Source of the DNA: Verrucomicrobia bacterium UBA6015
Lineage (GTDB): Bacteria; Verrucomicrobiota; Kiritimatiellia; UBA8416
Direction of reading: 5' to 3'
Assembly (NCBI GenBank): GCA_002428045.1
Contig: DIZZ01000207.1
Location: 1 to 56,566, forward strand
DNA: 56,566 bases
The notes beneath the pieces were generated by a model. That model had not been told where the DNA came from and made no database searches. It worked only from the letters and a program-made list of their open reading frames with translations. The position numbers and the translations under genes were made by a program. Positions 3,100-21,083 of this stretch are shown here, piece by piece. The number at the start of each line of letters is the position of its first letter. Within the stretch, counting starts at the first letter, position 1.

Positions 3100-5280
3100 T
3101 CATACCAACATGGATGTCACACGGGGTACAATTCTGGGAGAATGATAATCGCATCTACGCTCCGTCCGATCGGTTGCCGCTGTGCCGAGCCACGGGGATC
3201 CTGCCCTTAAGCCGGGTAGCAGTTTCATCTGGCGCAGCAGGGCGTCAGGGTCGGGGCCGCGTCCGCGAAACGCCGTGAAGACGTCCATGGGGTGCAGGCT
3301 GCCGCCCGCCGCCAGGAGGGTGTCGCGGAAGCGCTGGCCGACCTTCCGCATGGCCTCCCGGTTATCCAGCCCAGCCTCGATAAACGCGCCAAAGGCATCG
3401 GCGGAAAGGACTTCCGCCCATTTGTAGCTATAGTATCCGGCAGCATAGCCGCCGGCAAAGATATGCGAGAAGCCGCACAACAGGCGATCCTCCGGCAACG
3501 GGGGCAGGATGGCAAAGTCGGCGGCGAGGGCTTCCTTGACCGCGTTGGGGCTGCGCGCGTCGCCAGGGGCGTAACGAGCATGCAGTTCCATGTCCACGGC
3601 ACCGAACAGGAGCTGCCGCAGGGACGCCGAGCCCGCCCGGAAATAGCGGGATTCGGTGATCCTGGCAATCATGTCGTCCGGCAGGCAGGCGCCGGTGGCG
3701 ATGTGGCGGGACATGCCGCTGAGGACAGGGGCGTGGAAGCACCAGTTTTCCATGAACTGGCTGGGCAGTTCGACGGCATCCCATTCGACATTGTGGATGC
3801 CCGAGGCTTCCGGGATGTCGACCGTGGTCAGCAGATGTTGCAGCGCATGACCGAATTCGTGGAAAAGGGTGGTTATTTCGTTCAGGGTCAACAGGGACGG
3901 CGTGTCGCCGACCGGTAGGGTCTGGTTGCAGACGAGATAGGCGACCGGATAGCTCAGGGTGTTGTCCGGCAATCGCTTGCGTGGTCTGACGCTATCCATC
4001 CAGGCCCCGCCGCGCTTGGTTTCCGGGCGGCTGTAAGGATCGAGGTAAAAGGCGGCGATCAGGGTGTTATCCGCGTTAAATACCTCGAAAAAACGGACAT
4101 CCGGATGCCAGGCCGGGGTTTTGCCATCGGCAGGGCGGATAGAAATAGAGAAGAGTTCCTGCGCGAGGGCGAACATGCCCGTAAGAACGTCGGGGAACTG
4201 GAAGTAGGGGCGCAGGTCTTCATCGTCGAAGCCGAAGCGCTGCTTGCGCATCTGTTCGCTCCAGAAGGCGATGTCCCAGTGTCGTAACGGCTCGGTCTGT
4301 CCCTGCTGCCGCGCAAAGGCGGAAAGGTCGGCATGTTCCTGCTCGGCGACCGGACGGGCGGCGTCGCGCACCCGGGCGGTCAGGCGATCGACGGCCTCGA
4401 CGGTGCCAGCCATGCGCTGTTGCAGGATCAGGTCGGCATAGGATGCACGATCGAGCAGCCAGGCCATTTCGCGGCGACCGGCGAGAATACGGTCGATCAG
4501 TGCCGTGTTGTCGAATTCGCCAGCGGCGGCACGGGTGACAAAAGCGCGATAGAGCGCTTCGCGATGATCGCGGCGTTCGCTGTACTGCATGAACGGCAGG
4601 AATAGCGGGGCTTCCAGTGTGATGTGCCAAGGGCCTTTCTCCGGCGAGCTTGCCTCCTTGCCCGCCCGGCGGGCGGCACCCGACGCCGCCGCCCGCAGCG
4701 AGGGCGGCAGGCCAACGATATCATTGGCGGCGGTAAGCTCCAGTGCAAAGGCCTTGGTGGCGTCCAGCAGGTGATTGGAGAACGCCGTCGAGGCGGCAGC
4801 CAGCTCATCACGCAGGGTGCCCATGCGTTCGCGCTTGGCGGTGGGGAGTCCGACACCGGCGGTACGCGCGGAACACATCGCGCTGGTGATTAGGCGGCGG
4901 TGCGCCTCGTCGAGCGGGGTCCAGGCCTCGCCATCGCGGAGGGTGCGCATGGCGCGGTAAATCGGTTCGCTCTGGCCTGTGCGGGTGGAGAATGCGACCA
5001 CCTGGGGCTGGAGTTTATCATGCACGCGGCGCCAGTCGGGCGTGTTCATGACGCTGTGCAGGTGCGAGACGATGCCCCAGGCGTAGTCCAGTGGTTCCAT
5101 CAGGGTGAATAGCGGCTCCATGCAGCCTTCCCAGGAGGGGGTGGCCTCGGCCTCCAGCCGGGCGAGTTGTGCCTCCGCTGTGGCAAGGATGCGGGGAATG
5201 GTCTCCTCGGCCAGTTCAGGCGTGATCCGATCAAAAGGCGGCAGGTCATGCTGGCACAGCAAAGGATTCAGGTCAGACAT
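3100..5280 (-). CDS. prlC: M3-family oligopeptidase A-like zinc metallopeptidase, 726 aa
   Basis: It has the HEFGHALQH zinc motif and M3 family-wide similarity (FHEFGH...EVLSADAF). A non-conserved C-terminal tail of about 45 aa is encoded by lower-GC DNA at 3100-3235. Confidence 0.9.
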
Positions 5281-5597: not shown

Positions 5598-6701
5598 ATG
5601 GAAAGGAACAGAAACATGAAAAGCGATGCGAAGTCAAAGGGAACCTGGATTCACCGTTTTGCCATACGGCTGTTTACCCTCGTTCTTGCGATGCTGATAT
5701 TCTGGGTGCTTGGATTCTTTGTGGACGATATCCGGTCCATCTGCGGACCCGACTACGCCACCATCGAGCAGAAGCACTTGGACAAGGATCTTGTGGCAAA
5801 ACGGCTTGCTCTTGAGAAGCAGGTCGCGGATCTCACCCGGCAGATTGAGAACCAGACCGAGATACAGCGTGTCGTTGGGGACAGTTCCCGAAATCTGCAG
5901 CAGACCATCAACCAGCTTATTGAACTCCAGACACTTGGCATGCAGAAGAGTATCGCCTTTTCGGAAACCGAACAGGCGAACTTCACGAGCAGCCTGAGAC
6001 TTTTTCTGGACAACCAGAAGAAATATCAGGAACTGAGCCAGACTGTATCGGATATGCTTGAACGCAAGCAGGGGCTTGTTCGGGAGAAGGAACAAGCGGA
6101 GCAAGAGATTGAGGGGCAGCGTGGGCCAGCCAGGGATGAGTTCAACAACCTCAGCGAGAAACACCGTCTTAAACTCGCCTTTCTACAACTGGCGATCCTA
6201 TTGCCCGTTCTTATTGTCGCGGCTGCCGTCATCATCAAGAAACGTTCCAGCATCTACTTCCCGTTGTTCCTCGCCTTCGCCGCCGCAACACTGATTAAAG
6301 TCGCTCTTGTGATTCATGAGTATTTCCCCAGCAAATACTTCAAGTACATCCTCATTGGCGGTCTGTTGATCGTCGTGGCCCGGCTGTTGATCTATTTCAT
6401 CCGTACCATCGCGTTTCCAAAAACGCAATGGTTGGTCAAGCAATACCGGGAGGCATACGAGCGGTTTCTGTGCCCGGTGTGCGAGTATCCCATCAGAATT
6501 GGGCCGCGTCGCTTTCTGTTTTGGACCCGTCGGACGGTCAACAAGATCGTGGTGCCCGGCGATCACGGCGTTCTGGAAGAAAAGTATACTTGTCCATCGT
6601 GCGGCTGCAATCTTTTTGAGGAGTGCCCGTCTTGTCACAAGGTTAGACACGCGATGCTTCCAAACTGTTCGCACTGCGGAATCGAGAAGGAAATCAAATA
6701 G
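5598..6701 (+). CDS. Membrane protein with an N-terminal TM helix, a long coiled coil, three TM helices and a C-terminal double zinc ribbon (four CxxC); function unknown
   Basis: This is the only long ORF here with coherent composition. The CxxC motifs are CPVC, CPSC, CPSC and CSHC. Hydrophobic helices lie at about aa 20-45 and 195-275. Confidence 0.6.
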   Translation: MERNRNMKSDAKSKGTWIHRFAIRLFTLVLAMLIFWVLGFFVDDIRSICGPDYATIEQKHLDKDLVAKRLALEKQVADLTRQIENQTEIQRVVGDSSRNLQQTINQLIELQTLGMQKSIAFSETEQANFTSSLRLFLDNQKKYQELSQTVSDMLERKQGLVREKEQAEQEIEGQRGPARDEFNNLSEKHRLKLAFLQLAILLPVLIVAAAVIIKKRSSIYFPLFLAFAAATLIKVALVIHEYFPSKYFKYILIGGLLIVVARLLIYFIRTIAFPKTQWLVKQYREAYERFLCPVCEYPIRIGPRRFLFWTRRTVNKIVVPGDHGVLEEKYTCPSCGCNLFEECPSCHKVRHAMLPNCSHCGIEKEIK

Positions 6702-10186: not shown

Positions 10187-12769
10187 ATGATGATGACGAC
10201 ACCAAGTTTGTCCAGGAAAACGTTGATTCTTTATGGGATGGTCTTTTTTTCCGGATTTGCCGGCCTGGTGTACCAGGTGCTGTGGATGAAGCAGCTCGGG
10301 TTGCTCTTCGGTAACACGTCGCAGGCCGCCGCCGCCACGTTTGCCGCCTTTTTTGCCGGGCTTGCCGCCGGAAGCTGGGGTTGGGGGCGAAATGCGGCGA
10401 GGATGAAGCACCCGCTGCGTCGCTATGGCTGGCTGGAAGTGGGCATTGCTCTGAGTGCGCTGCTTTATTTCGCCATTCTGGCGCTGTATTACCGCATTTA
10501 TCCCGAGTTTTACCAACGTGTGAATTCCGCGACCTTGCTGCTGGTGTTAAAGTTCGCCTTGGCACTGCTGCTGATCTTTCCCCCCGCATTTTTCATGGGT
10601 GGGACGATTCCCGTCATGGCGCAATACCTTATCCGCAACCGCTCCAGCTTCGGATCCGCCTCCGCGTTTTTATACGGCATCAATACGTTGGGCGCAGCCA
10701 TCGGGGTGTTCATGGCCGGGTTCTGGTTCCCGTTATGGCTAGGGTTCAGGCTCACCTATGGATTGGCGATGACGGTGACCTGCTCGATGGCGGTGGGTGC
10801 CTTTGTCTTATCCAGGCCAGCGGGGAGCTGGCAGCCGGACGATCAGCCCGCCGTGACACCCAATCCTGCGGGCGCAGGGTGGGGTAGGCTGCCGCTGCTG
10901 GTCATCTGCTTTCTCTCGGGGTTTGGTACGCTTGCCCTCGAGGTGCTCTGGACGCGCATGTTTGTGCAAGTGCTCGAGAATTCCGTCTACACCTTTGCCG
11001 CGATCCTGCTGGTCGTGCTGTTGTGCCTGGCGGGCGGTTCGTTTATCAGTTCGCGGTTGGCGCGGCTATCGGTCCGACCTTCAACAATGATCCCGATCCT
11101 GCTGCTGGCGGGGGGGCTCTCCATCGCGATAAGCCCCTTCGTGTTTATGGAGCTAACCGACTCGCTCCAGATCCTGGTTTCGCCAGGATCGTGGTTCAGC
11201 TATCTCGGGCTGATCTTCAAGAACGTGTTCCTCACCATTGCCGTGCCGACCCTGATTCTCGGGACGATATTCCCGTATCTCCTGAAGGCCGAGGAAACGT
11301 ATTCAACCGCCGTGGGCCGGAGCATCGGTATCCTCTCTTGTGTCAATACCATCGGGGCCATTCTCGGATCGCTCGTCTGCGGTTTCTGGTTCCTTGGCAA
11401 TCTGGGAATGTGGCGTACGATGCACCTGATGGCCTTGGTTTATCTGGTGGCTGTCCTGTTGTTTCCGAATGGCTGGAGGATCCCTTCGCTGATCGTAAGA
11501 GGTGCCGCCCTGTCGGCCATGGTGCTGCTATTCTGGGGGCTCGATCCGCGGGCGCTTCCCGTGCATAGCATCGACAAGTTAAGGCCTTCGGAAACGATTC
11601 TAGAGACGTGGGAAGGCCGCGATTGTATCGTGTCCGCCGCACGGACCCGGCATGGCATTTCGATCAAGATCAACTCCCACTACGGGCTCGGTTCGACCGA
11701 TGCCTATATGCAGGAACGGATGCAGTCAGATATTCCCCTGTATGCTTATCCAGAGACGCGGAACGTCTTCTTCCTTGGCATGGGGACTGGCATTACGGCA
11801 GGCGGAGCGCTCGATGCCGCCCGGTTTCCGAACATCAACCGTGTCGTGACCTGCGAGCTGGTGCCCGAAGTGATCCAAGCCGCCCGCCAATACATTACCG
11901 ATGTAGATGGATTTGATTGCACGGGCGGTCTATTCACCGACCCTCGAGCGACCCTCCTGGCGGAGGACGGACGGCATTATCTCATGGCCACTCGCGAAGC
12001 CTTCGATATGATCAACGCCGACCTGTTCGTACCCTTTCAGGCAGGTACCGGGAGCCTCTATAGCAAGGAGCATTTCGAGAGCGTGAAGCATCGATTGGCA
12101 CCCGGCGGCGTCTTTTTCCAATGGCTGCCGCTATATCAACTGACCGAGAATGAAGTGTACATCATCGCCAGAACGATGCTCGAAGTGTTTGATCAGGTGT
12201 CGCTGTGGCGCAATAATTTCCAGCCGGGTGATGAGGTCATTGCCTTTGCCGGTCACAAGCTGGCTGCGCCGTTACCGTCCAACAGGGTCGACAGTCATCC
12301 AGACCGGACCGCCGCCGTTGCGGGCAAGAATTGGCATGACCTGATGCGGCTTGCCCTGCCGTTCGATGCGTCAACCATCCTCTTCTTTTATGGAGGCAAC
12401 ATCACGGCGGCGAGGGAACTTTTCGAGGGATATCCGGTGAATACGGATGACAAGCCACTGATCGAGTACATGGCACCGCGTACGTACCGCGACCGCAAGG
12501 ACACCGCCATTCCATGGTTTGTCGGGCCACGCATCGCCAAGCTGGTCGACAATGTCCAGCGGCTTTGCCCTCCGGCTAGCGACCCCCTGCTTGCCGAGCG
12601 ATTGCCCGCCGAGCGGCGCCTGCCAGTGGCGGGATCGTATTTCCACTGGGCACGAATCTGGGACGTGATCGGTGACGAAGCCCAGTGCCACCAAGCCTGG
12701 ACAAACTTTATCCGCGAATGGACGGATGCCCCCAAAACCGCAGCCGATGATGAAAGGCCAAAGCCCTAA
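10187..12769 (+). CDS. Fused polytopic-membrane / spermidine-synthase-like (class I methyltransferase fold) protein, 860 aa
   Basis: The N-terminal half (about 450 aa) is multi-TM. The C-terminal part has an aminopropyltransferase-like core (FFLGMGTGITAGGALD...INADLF). Confidence 0.8.
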   Translation: MMMTTPSLSRKTLILYGMVFFSGFAGLVYQVLWMKQLGLLFGNTSQAAAATFAAFFAGLAAGSWGWGRNAARMKHPLRRYGWLEVGIALSALLYFAILALYYRIYPEFYQRVNSATLLLVLKFALALLLIFPPAFFMGGTIPVMAQYLIRNRSSFGSASAFLYGINTLGAAIGVFMAGFWFPLWLGFRLTYGLAMTVTCSMAVGAFVLSRPAGSWQPDDQPAVTPNPAGAGWGRLPLLVICFLSGFGTLALEVLWTRMFVQVLENSVYTFAAILLVVLLCLAGGSFISSRLARLSVRPSTMIPILLLAGGLSIAISPFVFMELTDSLQILVSPGSWFSYLGLIFKNVFLTIAVPTLILGTIFPYLLKAEETYSTAVGRSIGILSCVNTIGAILGSLVCGFWFLGNLGMWRTMHLMALVYLVAVLLFPNGWRIPSLIVRGAALSAMVLLFWGLDPRALPVHSIDKLRPSETILETWEGRDCIVSAARTRHGISIKINSHYGLGSTDAYMQERMQSDIPLYAYPETRNVFFLGMGTGITAGGALDAARFPNINRVVTCELVPEVIQAARQYITDVDGFDCTGGLFTDPRATLLAEDGRHYLMATREAFDMINADLFVPFQAGTGSLYSKEHFESVKHRLAPGGVFFQWLPLYQLTENEVYIIARTMLEVFDQVSLWRNNFQPGDEVIAFAGHKLAAPLPSNRVDSHPDRTAAVAGKNWHDLMRLALPFDASTILFFYGGNITAARELFEGYPVNTDDKPLIEYMAPRTYRDRKDTAIPWFVGPRIAKLVDNVQRLCPPASDPLLAERLPAERRLPVAGSYFHWARIWDVIGDEAQCHQAWTNFIREWTDAPKTAADDERPKP

Positions 12770-15680: not shown

Positions 15681-16541
15681 ATGGGATTAACCATGAATAC
15701 GAATGTCAGTACAGTGGGCGTTGCCCTCGGCGGCGGGGGGGTGCGGGGGCTGGGGCACATTCCTGTCCTTGAAGCCATCGATGCTTGCGGAATTATACCG
15801 ACAGCGATTGCCGGGACAAGCATGGGCGCAATTATTGGCGTCTTGTACGCCGCCGGTAGATCGGGCAAGGAAATCCGTAGTCTTGTCGAGGAGCATAGGG
15901 TCCGCCGGGACGACGGAATAAAGGATCTCTATGCCAAAAGAGCCTCTCTGCTGAAATGGTTGAAGGTCGTTCGCCTCTCATGGACAGGTTCGGGGTTGTT
16001 AAAGGCCGACCGGTTTCTGCGGTACCTCATCGAGCAGATGAATGTGACACGGTTCGAGGATCTGAAGATTCCTTTGCGTGTGGTCGCCACCGATTTCTAC
16101 ACGGGTAAGGCCATCATCTTCGACTCCGGTCCCCTGCTGCCGGCGCTGAAGGCCAGCATGTCGATTCCGGGAGTGTTCGTGCCGGTAGAACACAACGGCA
16201 AAATTCTTGTGGACGGAGGTGTGAGCAACAACCTTCCGTACGACATCCTCCCGGAATCCTGTGATCTGACCATTGCCGTCGATGTTTCACCGACGCGCGA
16301 AATAAGAGACGCTGATCCGCCCAGCATGATTGACGCCACGTTGGGTATGTTCGACATGTTGATCGAAAGGGTTACCCAGGCGATGATCGACAAGCGACCT
16401 CCCGATATCTATTTCCACCCACGCCTGGTCGGCATCCGCATCTTGGATTTCGATAAGGCGGAGGATGTGTTCACCCAAGTACAGGCCGCCATACCCGCGC
16501 TGACGGAAAGACTCAACGACATCCGTCAACATTCCCTTTAA
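15681..16541 (+). CDS. Patatin-like phospholipase, 286 aa
   Basis: It has the oxyanion GGGGVRG, the nucleophile elbow GTSMG, and the catalytic Asp in VDGG. Confidence 0.9.
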   Translation: MGLTMNTNVSTVGVALGGGGVRGLGHIPVLEAIDACGIIPTAIAGTSMGAIIGVLYAAGRSGKEIRSLVEEHRVRRDDGIKDLYAKRASLLKWLKVVRLSWTGSGLLKADRFLRYLIEQMNVTRFEDLKIPLRVVATDFYTGKAIIFDSGPLLPALKASMSIPGVFVPVEHNGKILVDGGVSNNLPYDILPESCDLTIAVDVSPTREIRDADPPSMIDATLGMFDMLIERVTQAMIDKRPPDIYFHPRLVGIRILDFDKAEDVFTQVQAAIPALTERLNDIRQHSL

Positions 16542-16626
16542 GGCCAGATGCTTCACAGGAATTCATTGCTGCGGTTAGGTTAGGTTTGATTTCGTGTTGG
16601 GTTTGCTTTCGGTGACTTGATGTGTC

Positions 16627-19491
16627 ATGCTCCCGATTATGGCTGCAATCCAAGAACCCATTGAAGCACCGCTAGGGCAGGCGGTGCGCGAGCGTATCTG
16701 CACACGTTTGTCGCCACCCGGCGAGAAAATAGACTTGTTCAGGTCACTTTTTCGGGGGCGGGAGGATGTCTATCCGAGGCGGTTCGAGAATCCCAAGACC
16801 GGCAAGAGCGGATACAGCCCGGCTTGCGCGAATGAATGGATCCGGGATGTCTGCGACAAGCGCAAAGTCCGTTGTGTGGAATGTCTTGGACGGCAGTTCC
16901 TGCCCGTGACCGAGGAGGTTATCCGCTGGCATCTCTCGGGGACTGATGATCAAGGTCGCGACTTCGTGGCAGGCGTTTATCCCATGCTTCTTGATGAAAC
17001 GTGTTTTTTCCTGGCGGCGGACTTTGACAAGGCCCGCTGGCAGGATGATATCCAGGCTGTGCGCGAGACATGCACGGCATTGGAGATTCCGTATGTCGTC
17101 GAACGTTCACGCTCCGGCCATGGCGCGCACCTCTGGATCTTTTTCGAGACCGCCATCCCGGCCGTCCTGGCGAGGAAGCTGGGTGCCTATATCCTGACGA
17201 TGACGATGCAGCGTCGTCCCGATATTGGCCTGGATTCGTATGACCGTTTCTTTCCGAACCAGGATACGCTGCCGAAGGGCGGACTGGGAAACCTGATTGC
17301 CCTGCCGATGCAGAAGCAGGCGAGGGCCAACGGGCATACGGAATTCCTGGATGAGCACCTCAACCCGTGGCCGGATCCATGGGCCTTCATGGCCGGTGTG
17401 AAAAAGCTGGCACCGTCATGGGTCGAGACCTTAATCCACCATGCCGAACGCAAGGGTCATGTTGTGGGGGTGCGAATGGTTGCCGAGGACGACAATGCCG
17501 AATCGCCATGGCTGGCGCTCCCATCAAGGGCACCGCGTATCCCGTCTGGCGCATTCCCACAAACCCTGCAACTTGTGCTCGGTAATCAGGTTTATATCCC
17601 AAAAGCGGCGCTTTCGCCATCCCTGCGGAATGGACTGTTGCGGTTGGCCGCATTCCAGAACCCTGAGTTCTACAAGGCTCAGGCCCTGCGCTTGCCAACG
17701 TTTGACAAGCCTCGCATCATCGCCTGCGCCGAGGATTATCCTGAGCATCTGGCCTTGCCAAGGGGCTGTCTTGACGAGGCTACCGAGCTTCTGGCCGCGC
17801 AAGGGCTCACGGTTGCCGTCCAGGACGAACGGTTTTCCGGCACACCCATCGACGTCGCCTTCTCGGGACTGTTGCGCCCGGACCAGGAGGCGGCGGCCGC
17901 CGCCCTGGTCGCCCATGATACGGGGGTGCTTTCCGCAACGACGGCATTCGGAAAAACCGTGCTGGCCGCCTGGTTGATCGCGCAGCGGGGCGTGAATACA
18001 CTGGTCCTCGTTCATCGCCGCCAGCTCCTCGAACAATGGGTTGAGCGGCTTTCCTCATTTCTGGGGATTCCTTCATCGCAGATCGGACGTATTGGCGGCG
18101 GTTCAAGGAAGGTGACCGGAACGATTGATGTGGCCCTGCTTCAAACCCTTTTCCGGAAAGGGGTGGTGCAGGATCTTGTCGGCACGTATGGCCATCTCGT
18201 TTTCGATGAGTGCCATCATCTGCCCGCCTTCAGCGTTGAACAGGTTGCCCGCCGAGCAAAGGCCAGGTATATACTCGGCCTGTCGGCCACGATAACGCGC
18301 AAGGATGGGCACCATCCCATCATTTTCATGCAATGCGGCCCGGTCAGGCACCGCGTGCATGCCAGGCAGCAGGCTGCGGAACGTCCCTTCACGCACAGTG
18401 TCTACGTCCGCCCCACCGCATTCCGGCAGGAGGAACCGGCGAGTGACGATGCACGGATGCAGTTCCAGATGCTTTACCAGGGACTGATTCATGACACGCC
18501 GCGCAACCGACTGATCATCGAGGATGTCGTGGCGGCGGTACGCGACAGGCGCAAGCCCGTGGTGTTGACCGAACGACGTGAGCATCTGGACATCCTGCTT
18601 GCCGCCTTATCCCCTGTGGTCACAAATCTCATTGTTCTCAGCGGCGGCATGACGCGGAAAGCCATCGATACCGCCATGGCGCAGCTCGCCTCGATCCCCG
18701 AGGATGCGGATCGCGTGATACTGGCAACCGGCCATTATTTGGGGGAGGGGTTTGATGATGCCAGGCTGGACACGCTGTTCCTGACACTGCCGATATCCTG
18801 GCGCGGCACCATCGCTCAGTACGTGGGCCGCCTGCACCGGCGGCATGACAACAAGCGCGAGGTTCGCGTCTACGATTATGCCGACCTGAATGTGCCGATG
18901 CTGGCGCGGATGTTCGATCGGCGCTGCAAGGGATATGAGGCCGTTGGGTACACGATCCTCCTGCCTGCAAGTGCCGTTCCGGGCTGGCCTCCTGAGGTGC
19001 CCTTGCCCGTTGATCCCGAATGGAAACGCGATTATGCGGCCAGCGTACAGCGGCTGATCCGGGATGGCGTCGATTCCCCGCTTGGCAATCTCTTCGTGCA
19101 TGCAGCCCGTGTCGCACCATCCACCGGGGAGGCGTGCGCCCGCAGCGCCTCGGAGGCTTTCCTTTACAGGCGACTCGAAACCTTGCCCGCCACTGCGGGG
19201 CGTTTTCAACTAAATGCCCGGTTGCCGATCCCGTTCGATCAGCGGGGCCACATGGAAGTGGATTTCCTATGTCCCGAAGCCCGGCTCGCGGTAGAGCTGG
19301 ATGGACCGCAGCATCTATCCGATGCCGATGCCTATCGGCGTGACCGGCACAAGGATGCGCTCCTGCAGGAGCACGGCTATTTTGTCCTTCGCTTTCTCGC
19401 GGAGGATATCGGCAAGGCGCTTGGAAAAACCCTTGATACCATTTATCGGACCCTGACCCTTTGCCTGCGCGAACGCGCCGGACGCCCATGA
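16627..19491 (+). CDS. AEP/PrimPol domain + SF2 (DECH) helicase + C-terminal DUF559/Vsr-like nuclease fusion protein, 954 aa
   Basis: AEP motifs are LAADFD (aa 129-134), SRSGHGAHLW (161-170) and DRFFP (206-210). Helicase motifs are TAFGKT (439-444), DECH (527-530), SAT (553-555) and QYVGRLHRR (731-739). The DUF559-like tail is EVDFLCPEARLAVELDGPQH...GYFVLRF (aa about 843-930). Confidence 0.85.
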   Translation: MLPIMAAIQEPIEAPLGQAVRERICTRLSPPGEKIDLFRSLFRGREDVYPRRFENPKTGKSGYSPACANEWIRDVCDKRKVRCVECLGRQFLPVTEEVIRWHLSGTDDQGRDFVAGVYPMLLDETCFFLAADFDKARWQDDIQAVRETCTALEIPYVVERSRSGHGAHLWIFFETAIPAVLARKLGAYILTMTMQRRPDIGLDSYDRFFPNQDTLPKGGLGNLIALPMQKQARANGHTEFLDEHLNPWPDPWAFMAGVKKLAPSWVETLIHHAERKGHVVGVRMVAEDDNAESPWLALPSRAPRIPSGAFPQTLQLVLGNQVYIPKAALSPSLRNGLLRLAAFQNPEFYKAQALRLPTFDKPRIIACAEDYPEHLALPRGCLDEATELLAAQGLTVAVQDERFSGTPIDVAFSGLLRPDQEAAAAALVAHDTGVLSATTAFGKTVLAAWLIAQRGVNTLVLVHRRQLLEQWVERLSSFLGIPSSQIGRIGGGSRKVTGTIDVALLQTLFRKGVVQDLVGTYGHLVFDECHHLPAFSVEQVARRAKARYILGLSATITRKDGHHPIIFMQCGPVRHRVHARQQAAERPFTHSVYVRPTAFRQEEPASDDARMQFQMLYQGLIHDTPRNRLIIEDVVAAVRDRRKPVVLTERREHLDILLAALSPVVTNLIVLSGGMTRKAIDTAMAQLASIPEDADRVILATGHYLGEGFDDARLDTLFLTLPISWRGTIAQYVGRLHRRHDNKREVRVYDYADLNVPMLARMFDRRCKGYEAVGYTILLPASAVPGWPPEVPLPVDPEWKRDYAASVQRLIRDGVDSPLGNLFVHAARVAPSTGEACARSASEAFLYRRLETLPATAGRFQLNARLPIPFDQRGHMEVDFLCPEARLAVELDGPQHLSDADAYRRDRHKDALLQEHGYFVLRFLAEDIGKALGKTLDTIYRTLTLCLRERAGRP

Positions 19492-19520: not shown

Positions 19521-19929
19521 TCAGTGGATGACCGTCCCTTTGATCACCTCTGCTGATTTGCTTTTCTTAAGGCTACGGCTGACGTCCTGCGATAGGGCGA
19601 TCAGTGCTGCCGGAAGGAACGGCTTGGCTGTTGCCGGGACGACGAGGGCTTGACGTTTCATTTGTCCGGCTAGATAGGGAATATCCATTTCATCCCATCC
19701 AATCGCTTGAAAGATGGACTGGAGATCATCAATGTCCTTTGGGCGCGGCCTGCCTGCCATCAATGCATAAAGTTTGGAAAGGATGATATCCTCAACGGTA
19801 AGGACAGGCACTAGCCCGAATCCGAAATCAACCTGGTTATCCTGCGCCCGCAACTTCAGATTCGGTCAGGTTGACAAGGTCAATATCCATCGTCAATCGA
19901 GGTTCCTGGCGGTATAAGGAGGCCGCCAT
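19521..19929 (-). pseudogene. Frameshifted nucleotidyltransferase-fold gene remnant (AbiEii/MNT/DUF6036-like)
   Basis: One frame reads MAASLYRQEPRLTMDIDLVNLTESEVAGAG* (an NTase xDxD-type motif, stop at 19837). The C-terminal part continues in another frame (ORF 19521..19853: ...VPVLTVEDIILSKLYALMAGRPRPKDIDDL). Confidence 0.4.
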
Positions 19930-20090: not shown

Positions 20091-21083
20091 TCACGCGGAT
20101 TTTTCAGGGCGGGTGTACGGTTTGGAGACGATCTGGCCCTCGGGCGGCAGGTTTCCTCGTGTGAGGCCTAGGTCTGCCAGCACGGCATCGGTGGTCTTGA
20201 AGTGGCACTTGACGGTGTTGAGCAGCGTTTCTGGTGTGGTGCGGCGTACAAGCGAGACCGCCGCTGTGCGTACCGCCGCCGAAGCGCCCTTGGGAATCTC
20301 CGCGCTGTACTGTTCGCGCATTTTCTGCAAGGCACAAAGGAAACTTTCACGTGCCAGGATGGATGCGGCGGCGACCGCCATGTCGGACTCCGCCTTGTGG
20401 CGCTGGATCAGTTCGATGCCGCGTCCCGCCTTCATCAGTGCCCGTTCGACGCTCTCCTTGCTGCCGAACTGGTCGGAAATCGCGGTCGGGCAGTCCGGAA
20501 CGGCCTGCAGCAGGTTTTCGATGGCACGGGCATGTCCCCAGGCCAGGATGCGGTTGACACTGCGCATTTTGGCGTAAAGACGATTGTAGGCGGCGGGTCC
20601 GATCGATACCAAGGCGAAGCGGTTACCCAGCAGTTTGCGCAGTGCAGCGCCGATCTCCATCGCCTTCTTGTCGCTGCTGATCGCCTTGCTGTCCTTGACA
20701 TCAAGCTTACGCATCGTCTCGAACAGCGTTTCATCAACATAGGCGGCGGCGATCACCAGCGGGCCGAAGAAATCCCCCTTGCCGCTCTCGTCCACCCCCA
20801 TGTGCGGGGCGGTCAATTCCGGATTCAGTGCCTGTTCATAGCCGACTGTGGCGCTCCCCAGTACGCAGGGTTCCAGCACGAATTCAACAAATGTTTTTGC
20901 GCCCTTTCCCTGGACCAACAACTTACCGCTGGTGTACAGGTTGATCGAACAATCCTCCGCCTTGACGGCAATCAGGGTATAAGGCACCTCGGCGGGACGA
21001 TAATTCCCTTGGCGCAGCAGGTCGATCAAGGTTTTCTGTTGATCGGATGACAGCTTGTACGAAAAAGAATGGGTTTCAGACAT
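20091..21083 (-). CDS. rnhC: Ribonuclease HIII
   Basis: An N-terminal TBP-like domain of about 90 aa is followed by an RNase HII-fold core (GVDESGKGDFFGPLVIAA). The ATG at 21083 (MSETHSF) is preferred. Confidence 0.85.
   Translation of the reverse strand: MSETHSFSYKLSSDQQKTLIDLLRQGNYRPAEVPYTLIAVKAEDCSINLYTSGKLLVQGKGAKTFVEFVLEPCVLGSATVGYEQALNPELTAPHMGVDESGKGDFFGPLVIAAAYVDETLFETMRKLDVKDSKAISSDKKAMEIGAALRKLLGNRFALVSIGPAAYNRLYAKMRSVNRILAWGHARAIENLLQAVPDCPTAISDQFGSKESVERALMKAGRGIELIQRHKAESDMAVAAASILARESFLCALQKMREQYSAEIPKGASAAVRTAAVSLVRRTTPETLLNTVKCHFKTTDAVLADLGLTRGNLPPEGQIVSKPYTRPEKSA

Follow-up and report, generated by a model that had tools for sequence, protein, structure and literature searches.

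A 56,566-nucleotide stretch of DNA from Verrucomicrobia bacterium UBA6015 (GenBank assembly GCA_002428045.1, contig DIZZ01000207.1), hereafter termed the window, encodes at positions 16627-19491 of its forward strand a single polypeptide of 954 amino acids carrying three modules that, judged from their sequences, are apparently active: an archaeo-eukaryotic primase (AEP) of the primase-polymerase (Prim-Pol) type, a superfamily 2 (SF2) translocase resembling XPB, and a nuclease of the Vsr type. We lean towards the view that the gene for this protein was acquired horizontally and that its product is an autonomous nucleic-acid conflict (defence) enzyme, a stand-alone member of the family designated AEP-TOTE. 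This view draws on the portability of the gene as a single unit, its patchy distribution among phyla and its exchangeable nuclease; on a motor of the XPB/ResIII type rather than a replicative one; on the recurrence of Abi, toxin-antitoxin, candidate-defence and recombinase genes among its neighbours; and on the classification of the family by Pfam and NCBI, taken together with precedents for helicase-Vsr proteins in hhe and in the YprA-Vsr fusions of ARMADA. A preliminary description of the window, made from the letters alone, had likewise considered a stand-alone enzyme of nucleic-acid surveillance or defence more plausible than a replicon primase, and the analyses reported here support that preference, the defensive role itself being inferred from context.

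The open reading frame (ORF) list and translation give a complete coding sequence (16627-19491, forward strand) beginning with ATG and free of internal stops, the call also made by JGI when annotating the metagenome contig from which the window derives. Its modules follow in the order AEP Prim-Pol, XPB-like SF2 helicase and DUF559/Vsr-like nuclease, the fusion originally proposed, and Pfam, sequence searches of solved structures and Foldseek agree on all three. The N-terminal part, aa 33-267 (16723-17427, forward strand), matches the Pfam model PF22548, 'AEP-TOTE: TOTE conflict system, Archaeo-Eukaryotic Primase domain', at 312.3 bits (gathering cut-off 27; E 2.6e-93) over model positions 1-228 of 230, so that profile searches assign it to the AEP fold as expected and make it a full-length member of the AEP-TOTE family. 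The same part is matched by PDLC01465, the cas-associated 'PrimPol' model of PADLOC (E 8e-88), and NCBIfam reports sub-threshold similarity to the CRISPR-associated Prim-Pol (CAPP), whose equivalog scored 59.8 bits, below the cut-off of 200, and to XPB. Among solved structures, the closest sequence found by phmmer was the Prim-Pol domain of Marinitoga CAPP (6e-6), and a separate model of aa 1-425 gave as its top Foldseek match the CAPP structure 7NQD (target-normalised TM-score 0.70; E 8e-8), followed by Prim-PolC, LigD-Pol and cyanophage PrimPol, with weak fold matches to E5 and RepB'. CAPP (7NQD/7NQF/7P9J) is in both respects the closest solved relative of this domain; it differs in context and architecture, in that the window protein is accompanied by neither cas genes nor a repeat array, and its fusion partners are a helicase and a nuclease instead of Cas or reverse transcriptase modules. 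Linkage to CRISPR, as suggested by the PADLOC model, was accordingly rejected for this locus.

The helicase core (aa 416-760; 17872-18906, forward strand) contains motifs I, II, III and VI and is matched over aa 416-558 by the Pfam models ResIII (E 2.5e-19) and DEAD (E 1.4e-9). Its closest solved sequence is archaeal XPB-II (3e-16). A full-length AlphaFold model was of moderate quality (pLDDT 67), and its best PDB matches by Foldseek were archaeal XPB and XPB-Bax1 complexes, TFIIH XPB, T4 UvsW and the restriction enzyme SauUSI, the XPB alignments spanning about 480 columns against a 440-residue target. The motor is therefore of the XPB/ResIII type found in repair and restriction machines and not a hexameric SF3/SF4 replicative helicase. 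It is preceded by a conserved alpha/beta module with confidently predicted secondary structure (aa ~310-415; 17554-17871, forward strand) that, from its position in the model, probably takes the place of the N-terminal damage-recognition domain of XPB. The C-terminal module (aa ~836-945; 19132-19461, forward strand) is a DUF559/Vsr-like nuclease of the PD-(D/E)xK type, matched by PF04480 over aa 875-943 (nt 19249-19455) at 48.7 bits (cut-off 20.6; E 7.5e-13) and closest among solved structures to the DUF559 structure 3HRL (E 1.4e-3).

Each sequence motif named in the preliminary description, and a cysteine cluster noted with them, was recovered at its assigned residues and nucleotides. The AEP motifs are LAADFD (aa 129-134; nt 17011-17028), SRSGHGAHLW (aa 161-170) and DRFFP (aa 206-210), supplying the catalytic residues D132 and D134 of motif I, H168 of motif II and D206 of motif III; those of the helicase are TAFGKT (motif I; aa 439-444, nt 17941-17958, with GKT at 442-444), DECH (motif II; aa 527-530, nt 18205-18216), SAT (motif III; aa 553-555) and QYVGRLHRR (motif VI; aa 731-739, with QxxGRxxR and its arginine finger at 731-738). 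The nuclease motif is EVDFLCPEARLAVELDGPQH (aa 877-896). When 30 homologues with 65-75% identity to the query were aligned, these catalytic positions proved invariant, which suggests that all three enzymatic modules are functional: D132, D134, H168 and D206 in the AEP domain; G442-K443-T444, D527-E528-C529-H530, Q731, R735 and R738 in the helicase; and D879, E890, D892 and H896 in the nuclease. Also invariant are the four cysteines of the cluster C67-x8-C76-x6-C83-x2-C86, within the AEP domain (16825-16884, forward strand), whose spacing suggests a presumed zinc site; model confidence there is low (pLDDT <50). Between helicase and nuclease lies a linker (aa 761-835; 18907-19131, forward strand) that is near-invariant across phyla, with W787, P788, V791-P794 and W799 invariant, and is modelled with very low confidence (pLDDT ~30-36); it may act as an interaction or regulatory element. 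Pfam scans of the linker alone and of the alpha/beta module alone gave no match.

The nature of these modules bears on one alternative, that the protein serves its host in DNA repair or damage tolerance, as a one-protein patch-repair or fork-restart machine that nicks, unwinds and resynthesises DNA, akin to archaeal XPB-Bax1 with a Prim-Pol. In structure the motor comes closest to XPB, the XPB-Bax1 repair complexes and T4 UvsW; the AEP domain resembles, after CAPP, the repair polymerases Prim-PolC and LigD-Pol; Vsr is itself a repair nickase; and high sequence conservation, with many copies standing among housekeeping genes, would suit such a function. One report describes a PrimPol-RT defence protein of E. 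coli that also aids the oxidative-damage response (PMC12439943). The logic of XPB/Rad25 and of archaeal XPB-Bax1, in which an SF2 translocase that opens DNA is paired with a structure-specific nuclease, is indeed the same, but in the window protein the nuclease is of the Vsr type and covalently fused, and an AEP domain is added. Moreover, the XPB equivalog NF045503 of NCBIfam scored only 57.7 bits against a cut-off of 610, so that the protein is not an XPB orthologue. Given also that, as detailed below, the gene is patchily distributed with obvious transfer between phyla, that the syntenic position in close relatives lacks it, that a PLD domain replaces the nuclease in other branches, and that it repeatedly adjoins Abi, toxin-antitoxin and recombinase genes, we regard a role in repair as quite unlikely.

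The architecture is widely disseminated. A word-index search retrieved at least 8000 clusters at 90% identity with a significant match to the query (every candidate scored was significant), and the best 120 of these share the same four Pfam matches at lengths of 857-982 aa. Scanning a single genome for each species revealed relatives in at least 591 species, with copies 60-75% identical; the best 80 of these are 61-70% identical to the query and represent Planctomycetota, Verrucomicrobiota, Lentisphaerota, Acidobacteriota, Alpha-, Beta-, Gamma- and Deltaproteobacteria, Myxococcota, Riflebacteria, Neomarinimicrobiota and one Saccharimonadales bin. Searching with the AEP domain alone gave, at E up to 1e-30, matches to 1412 sequences that each represent a 50%-identity cluster. 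That identity is so high between phyla when the distribution is so patchy points to frequent horizontal transfer, and the gene moves between phyla as a single gene.

Divergent representatives vary at the C-terminus, where the nuclease is replaced by a PLD domain in some (P0135, P0151, P0152 and P0184) and is absent from several others (including P0129 and P0243). Since this module may be Vsr, PLD or none, the conserved core of the family is the AEP domain with its SF2 motor, and the nuclease is exchangeable; such swapping is typical of defence effectors. A further variant, the 905-aa representative P0142, has a TraG-like P-loop domain where the SF2 helicase would otherwise stand, which hints at a further tie to conjugative machinery. 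Some homologues of the same architecture (P0064 and P0112 among them) already bear the NCBI product name 'TOTE conflict system archaeo-eukaryotic primase domain-containing protein'. The earlier statement that related fusions had been catalogued only computationally, as parts of 'conflict systems', thus agrees with the names given by PF22548 and NCBI and with our finding no experimental report in the searchable literature. The novelty of the protein is nevertheless below what had first been estimated: the family is already named, very large and computationally catalogued, and because the Pfam family, the NCBI names and JGI annotations ('superfamily II DNA or RNA helicase/very-short-patch-repair endonuclease') already capture this architecture, the window copy is one more member and not a new kind.

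AEP-helicase fusions are classic initiators of replicons, and a further alternative is a primase-helicase of mobile elements, engaged in replication of plasmids or integrative conjugative elements, in synthesis of the complementary strand after conjugation or in replicative transposition, with the nuclease making the initiating nick. Replicative primase-helicases such as pRN1 ORF904, poxvirus D5/E5 and RepB' share with the window protein an N-terminal AEP domain followed by an NTP-driven motor; theirs, however, is a hexameric SF3 motor within a replicon, whereas that of the window is a monomeric-type XPB/ResIII SF2 motor, not SF3, DnaB or MCM, with a nuclease attached and no replicon context. 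Plasmids do carry relatives: 235 of 72,556 plasmid records have matches, 99 of them on conjugative plasmids. The best of these matches extend from aa ~4 to 788 at ~56% identity and at most 81% coverage, those listed ending at aa 777-788, and since they stop at aa ~788 the best plasmid relatives comprise the AEP domain and helicase without the nuclease (~800 aa); the full three-domain form is absent from all 72,556 records. Similarly, 50,697 phage records gave no match at 80% coverage and matched the helicase part only, and among 2.9 million viral contigs of IMG/VR about eight carry an AEP-helicase relative and a single one the full architecture.

Six plasmid contexts of the nuclease-less form were inspected. 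In two of them TniQ lies directly upstream, and on Sphingobium pTB1 the gene comes last in an operon whose other, overlapping genes are TniA-like, TniB and TniQ; in three it stands beside a trio of tyrosine recombinases, and on Yoonia pSMR4r-1 the block of AEP-helicase gene and recombinase trio appears to split a strawberry-notch gene; in the remaining one insertion sequence elements and a hipA module surround it. These Tni-operon and recombinase-trio contexts of alphaproteobacterial plasmids lie at positions 688-8280 of L194, 6634-10271 of L082 and ~5800-14300 of L081, L192 and L193. They suggest that transposon-like elements also carry the AEP-helicase core, either as one of their components or as cargo, and the case for a mobile-element role is much stronger for this nuclease-less plasmid branch. 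For the three-domain protein, recombinases within 1.5 kb of the gene in ~18 of 160 chromosomal or metagenomic loci speak for the same role. Against it, the 80 loci of the three-domain clade revealed no Tni genes, no conserved ends or inverted repeats and no conserved partner, many copies are single genes amid housekeeping genes, and no integrase, rep, par or cas gene and no repeat array occurs within 10 kb of the gene in the window. Neither the window nor any of the 160 loci offers a replicon context, as had been anticipated, and homologues of three-domain form do not sit within the replication modules of plasmids or prophages. For the window protein we therefore consider a function in mobile-element replication unlikely.

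Genomic neighbourhoods were surveyed in two sets of loci, the first comprising 80 genome loci and the window, with ORFs taken from 8 kb on either side and clustered all against all, and the second, independent of it, 80 loci from metagenomes for which divergent members of the family, PLD-bearing ones included, served as seeds; both sets of 80 (160 loci) were interrogated with iterated hidden Markov model (HMM) searches within 1.5 kb of the gene. No conserved partner gene emerged. Artefactual overlapping frames aside, the largest cluster of neighbours occurred in five of 81 loci, and the metagenome set was likewise without a conserved neighbour. By Pfam and PADLOC the 138 immediately flanking ORFs proved heterogeneous, including AbiEii (5), PIN (3), ParE (3), the AAA_14-DUF4143 combination that is PADLOC candidate PDC-S01 (2), Schlafen-AlbA_2 (2) and one gene each for BrxA, JetD and a restriction enzyme of type II, together with many housekeeping genes. 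Within 1.5 kb, these HMMs found AbiEi/AbiEii in ~9 of the 160 loci, Schlafen-AlbA_2/HATPase_c_4 in eight, AAA_14-DUF4143 in seven, and recombinases, of the tyrosine (11) or serine (7) type, in the ~18 already mentioned.

Several of these associations are close. Intact AbiEi/AbiEii pairs, the commonest neighbours of family members, lie on the same strand directly upstream of the gene in L110 (5578-7028), L145 (1611-3202), L175 (1118-2616) and L084-L088; in the first three the AbiEii ORF ends 7-22 nt inside the start of the longest ORF of the gene, and in L084-L088 ~110 nt separate the two. The AbiEii genes come from different subfamilies, so that the pairing has recurred through independent acquisition, and it could be functional or represent stabilisation of the addiction type. 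One close homologue (P0044) follows an AbiEi/AbiEii pair and is succeeded ~3 kb further on by a block that encodes an integrase, DNA methylases and a PemK toxin; another (P0002) stands at the edge of an integrase-bearing island with toxin-antitoxin pairs of the MazE/PIN and HEPN/nucleotidyltransferase types. In the neighbourhoods of homologues, defence, toxin-antitoxin and recombinase genes thus recur, but in only about a third of loci, many copies standing among housekeeping genes, and the association is on these grounds a modest one.

The name of the family invites comparison with multi-gene TOTE systems, the term standing for TPR, OB, TBP, Effector and attributed in PMC12458937 to Aravind, Iyer and Burroughs 2022; the contrast drawn here rests on the definition cited there. 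The protein could accordingly be the non-autonomous effector of such a system, with TPR-OB and TBP sensor genes located elsewhere in the genome, a reading favoured by the near end-to-end, 312-bit match of its AEP domain to the TOTE-named Pfam model. The effector, with its nucleic-acid-targeting enzymatic domains (AEP, helicase and Vsr nuclease in one protein), is indeed present. In the window, however, no TPR, cold-shock/OB or TBP gene occurs within 10 kb, apart from the TBP-like DUF3378 domain at the N-terminus of a ribonuclease (RNase) HIII, and none recurs among neighbours in the 160 loci. The search for canonical TOTE operons by way of divergent members met the same result, the 80 further metagenome loci containing no TPR, OB or TBP genes. 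The RNase HIII was itself considered as the 'TBP' component and rejected: it is a genuine rnhC by the equivalog model (234 bits; cut-off 161), it is kept beside EF-Tu in relatives that lack the AEP gene, and it recurs beside no homologue in the related loci. Lacking both a TPR-OB gene and a TBP gene, the locus falls short of TOTE at the system level in two of its name-giving features, and the clade behaves like a unit of one gene. As partners in defence are normally adjacent, we hold dependence on distant TOTE genes to be very unlikely.

Nearer precedents for a stand-alone defence enzyme are found among helicase-nuclease proteins. The single gene hhe, which derives from Gao et al. 2020 as summarised in a later preprint, encodes a helicase with a Vsr nuclease active against lambda, T3, T7 and PhiV-1, and its nuclease-site mutant loses protection (bioRxiv 10.1101/2022.06.16.496414); in ARMADA, Vsr-type nucleases are fused to YprA helicases (PMC12458937). 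Hhe and the window protein are alike in being one large polypeptide with a helicase and a C-terminal Vsr-type nuclease, but Hhe lacks an AEP domain and is about twice as long, and no Hhe model appeared among PADLOC matches at E up to 1. The window protein is a member of neither the XPB-Bax1 nor the Hhe family.

From the biochemistry of the individual domains we infer a mechanism by which a conflict enzyme of this kind might operate, the motor opening DNA, the AEP domain priming and the nuclease cutting. The XPB-like motor would load onto foreign or aberrantly replicating DNA and, driven by ATP, move along the duplex and open it; the AEP domain, using as template the single strand laid bare, would make short primers or extend 3' ends; and this synthesis would mark and hold the enzyme at the primer-template junction while disturbing replication of the invader. 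The C-terminal Vsr-like nuclease, borne by the motor, would then nick or cut the DNA, and the outcome would be phage or plasmid DNA destroyed or its replication arrested. In such a scheme the nuclease may be seen as an exchangeable 'warhead', Vsr here and PLD in other branches, mounted on the AEP-helicase pair as conserved core. A bolder proposal, possible but on balance doubtful, is that of an autonomous 'prime-and-cut' restriction system in which primer synthesis de novo is itself part of immunity, with neither a modification partner nor sensor genes; AEP priming would in that case recognise, mark or jam foreign DNA as it replicates, and the Vsr nuclease would be licensed to cut there.

Several observations weigh against a defensive role. 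Beyond 'PrimPol', PADLOC returned generic helicase and nuclease models only, and no model of a validated system matched; the searchable literature yielded no experimental work on any member of the AEP-TOTE family; and the contribution ascribed to the AEP domain is purely conjectural. Mean column identity across phyla in the 30-sequence alignment is 72%, unusually high for an immune gene. Many copies stand among housekeeping genes, and by raw count only about one third of loci adjoin a defence, toxin-antitoxin or recombinase gene. Finally, nuclease-less relatives at ~56% identity are found on conjugative plasmids next to TniA/B/Q and three-recombinase elements, which for that branch at least hints at a role in mobile elements.

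Should the protein prove to be a defence enzyme, it would be among the most widespread single-gene systems yet to be assayed, numbering thousands of clusters over at least ten phyla and found chiefly in environmental bacteria that have been little studied, and would provide the first case of a primase-polymerase acting within a single chain alongside a translocase and a nuclease. Being unusually conserved and portable as one gene, the family lends itself readily to assays in a heterologous host, and the suggested use of the AEP-helicase core by mobile elements as well would link defence with the machinery of transposition. The locus in the window is itself ordinary, a member of a catalogued family in a strain-variable spot.

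That spot can be delimited on its right side. Judged by the relatives of its RNase HIII, which bear Verrucomicrobia, Lentisphaerae and Kiritimatiellae names, the host belongs to the PVC group. Three contigs of close relatives (L091-L093; DNA identity 86-89%, with one contig derived from the same sample) align with the window, starting on the EF-Tu side where they extend that far and running past tRNA-Thr into RNase HIII, collinearity ending exactly at the RNase HIII stop (position 20095); in two of the three diverging contigs an annotated peroxidase gene follows RNase HIII directly. As the relatives diverge at this stop codon, the AEP gene lies in a strain-variable segment with a defined right edge. 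Within the segment, 30 nt past the stop of the AEP gene and convergent with it, is a truncated remnant of an AbiEii toxin/nucleotidyltransferase (19521-19853, reverse strand; 110 aa), which corresponds to the C-terminal positions 132-210 of the 238-position model and is part of the context, not a working component. The 240 nt remaining before the RNase HIII stop are too short for the 5' half of AbiEii and an antitoxin gene, so that a deletion has removed both. The remnant shows no BLAST-level similarity to the AbiEii genes beside homologues, which makes these associations independent of one another. The location of the gene in a segment absent from close relatives and adjoining a decayed AbiEii supports the defence reading. 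Of the small accessory islet with decayed toxin-antitoxin genes previously postulated, the truncated AbiEii downstream and the loss of synteny stand; the small ORFs upstream gave no toxin-antitoxin match.

Other features of the locus appear particular to it, none of the immediate neighbours in the window recurring beside homologues at the 160 loci. To the right of the AbiEii remnant are the RNase HIII gene, tRNA-Thr, EF-Tu and a ribosomal/rpoBC cluster. To the left, a patatin-like phospholipase gene (15681-16541, forward strand) is separated from the AEP gene by an 85-nt gap with no predicted terminator; its best NCBIfam match is RssA-like, below cut-off, with weak matches to CBASS/anti-phage lipase models, and it was rejected as a partner, recurring in none of the 160 related loci. 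The 85-nt intergenic region contains, just before the start codon, 1.9 copies of a 17-nt unit, GTTAGGTTTGATTTCGT (16579-16611), a repeat not conserved at other loci. A conserved non-coding RNA or leader was sought and set aside, Rfam giving tRNA only and scans for promoters and terminators being uninformative. Use of the tRNA-Thr gene as an integration site was unsupported, the sole repeat at its 3' end (D3) being 19 nt long with a 79% match and judged to be at chance level.

A self-mobile single-gene element was likewise rejected, since 300-nt flanks (73 upstream and 70 downstream) contained no common sequence, and among 147 loci no terminal repeats, inverted repeats or conserved ends were shared. 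In one of these loci (L067), on a contig without tRNA, a 63-nt direct repeat, 97% identical, at 3568-3630 and 6601-6663 brackets the AEP-helicase-DUF559 gene exactly, defining a unit of 3033 nt; this is the only bracketing case in the 147. Elsewhere in the window are an 860-aa fused protein of the MFS/spermidine-synthase type (10187-12769, forward strand; MFS_SpdSyn of NCBIfam, 8e-40), downstream of tatA/tatC, and a 726-aa ORF on the reverse strand at 3100-5280.

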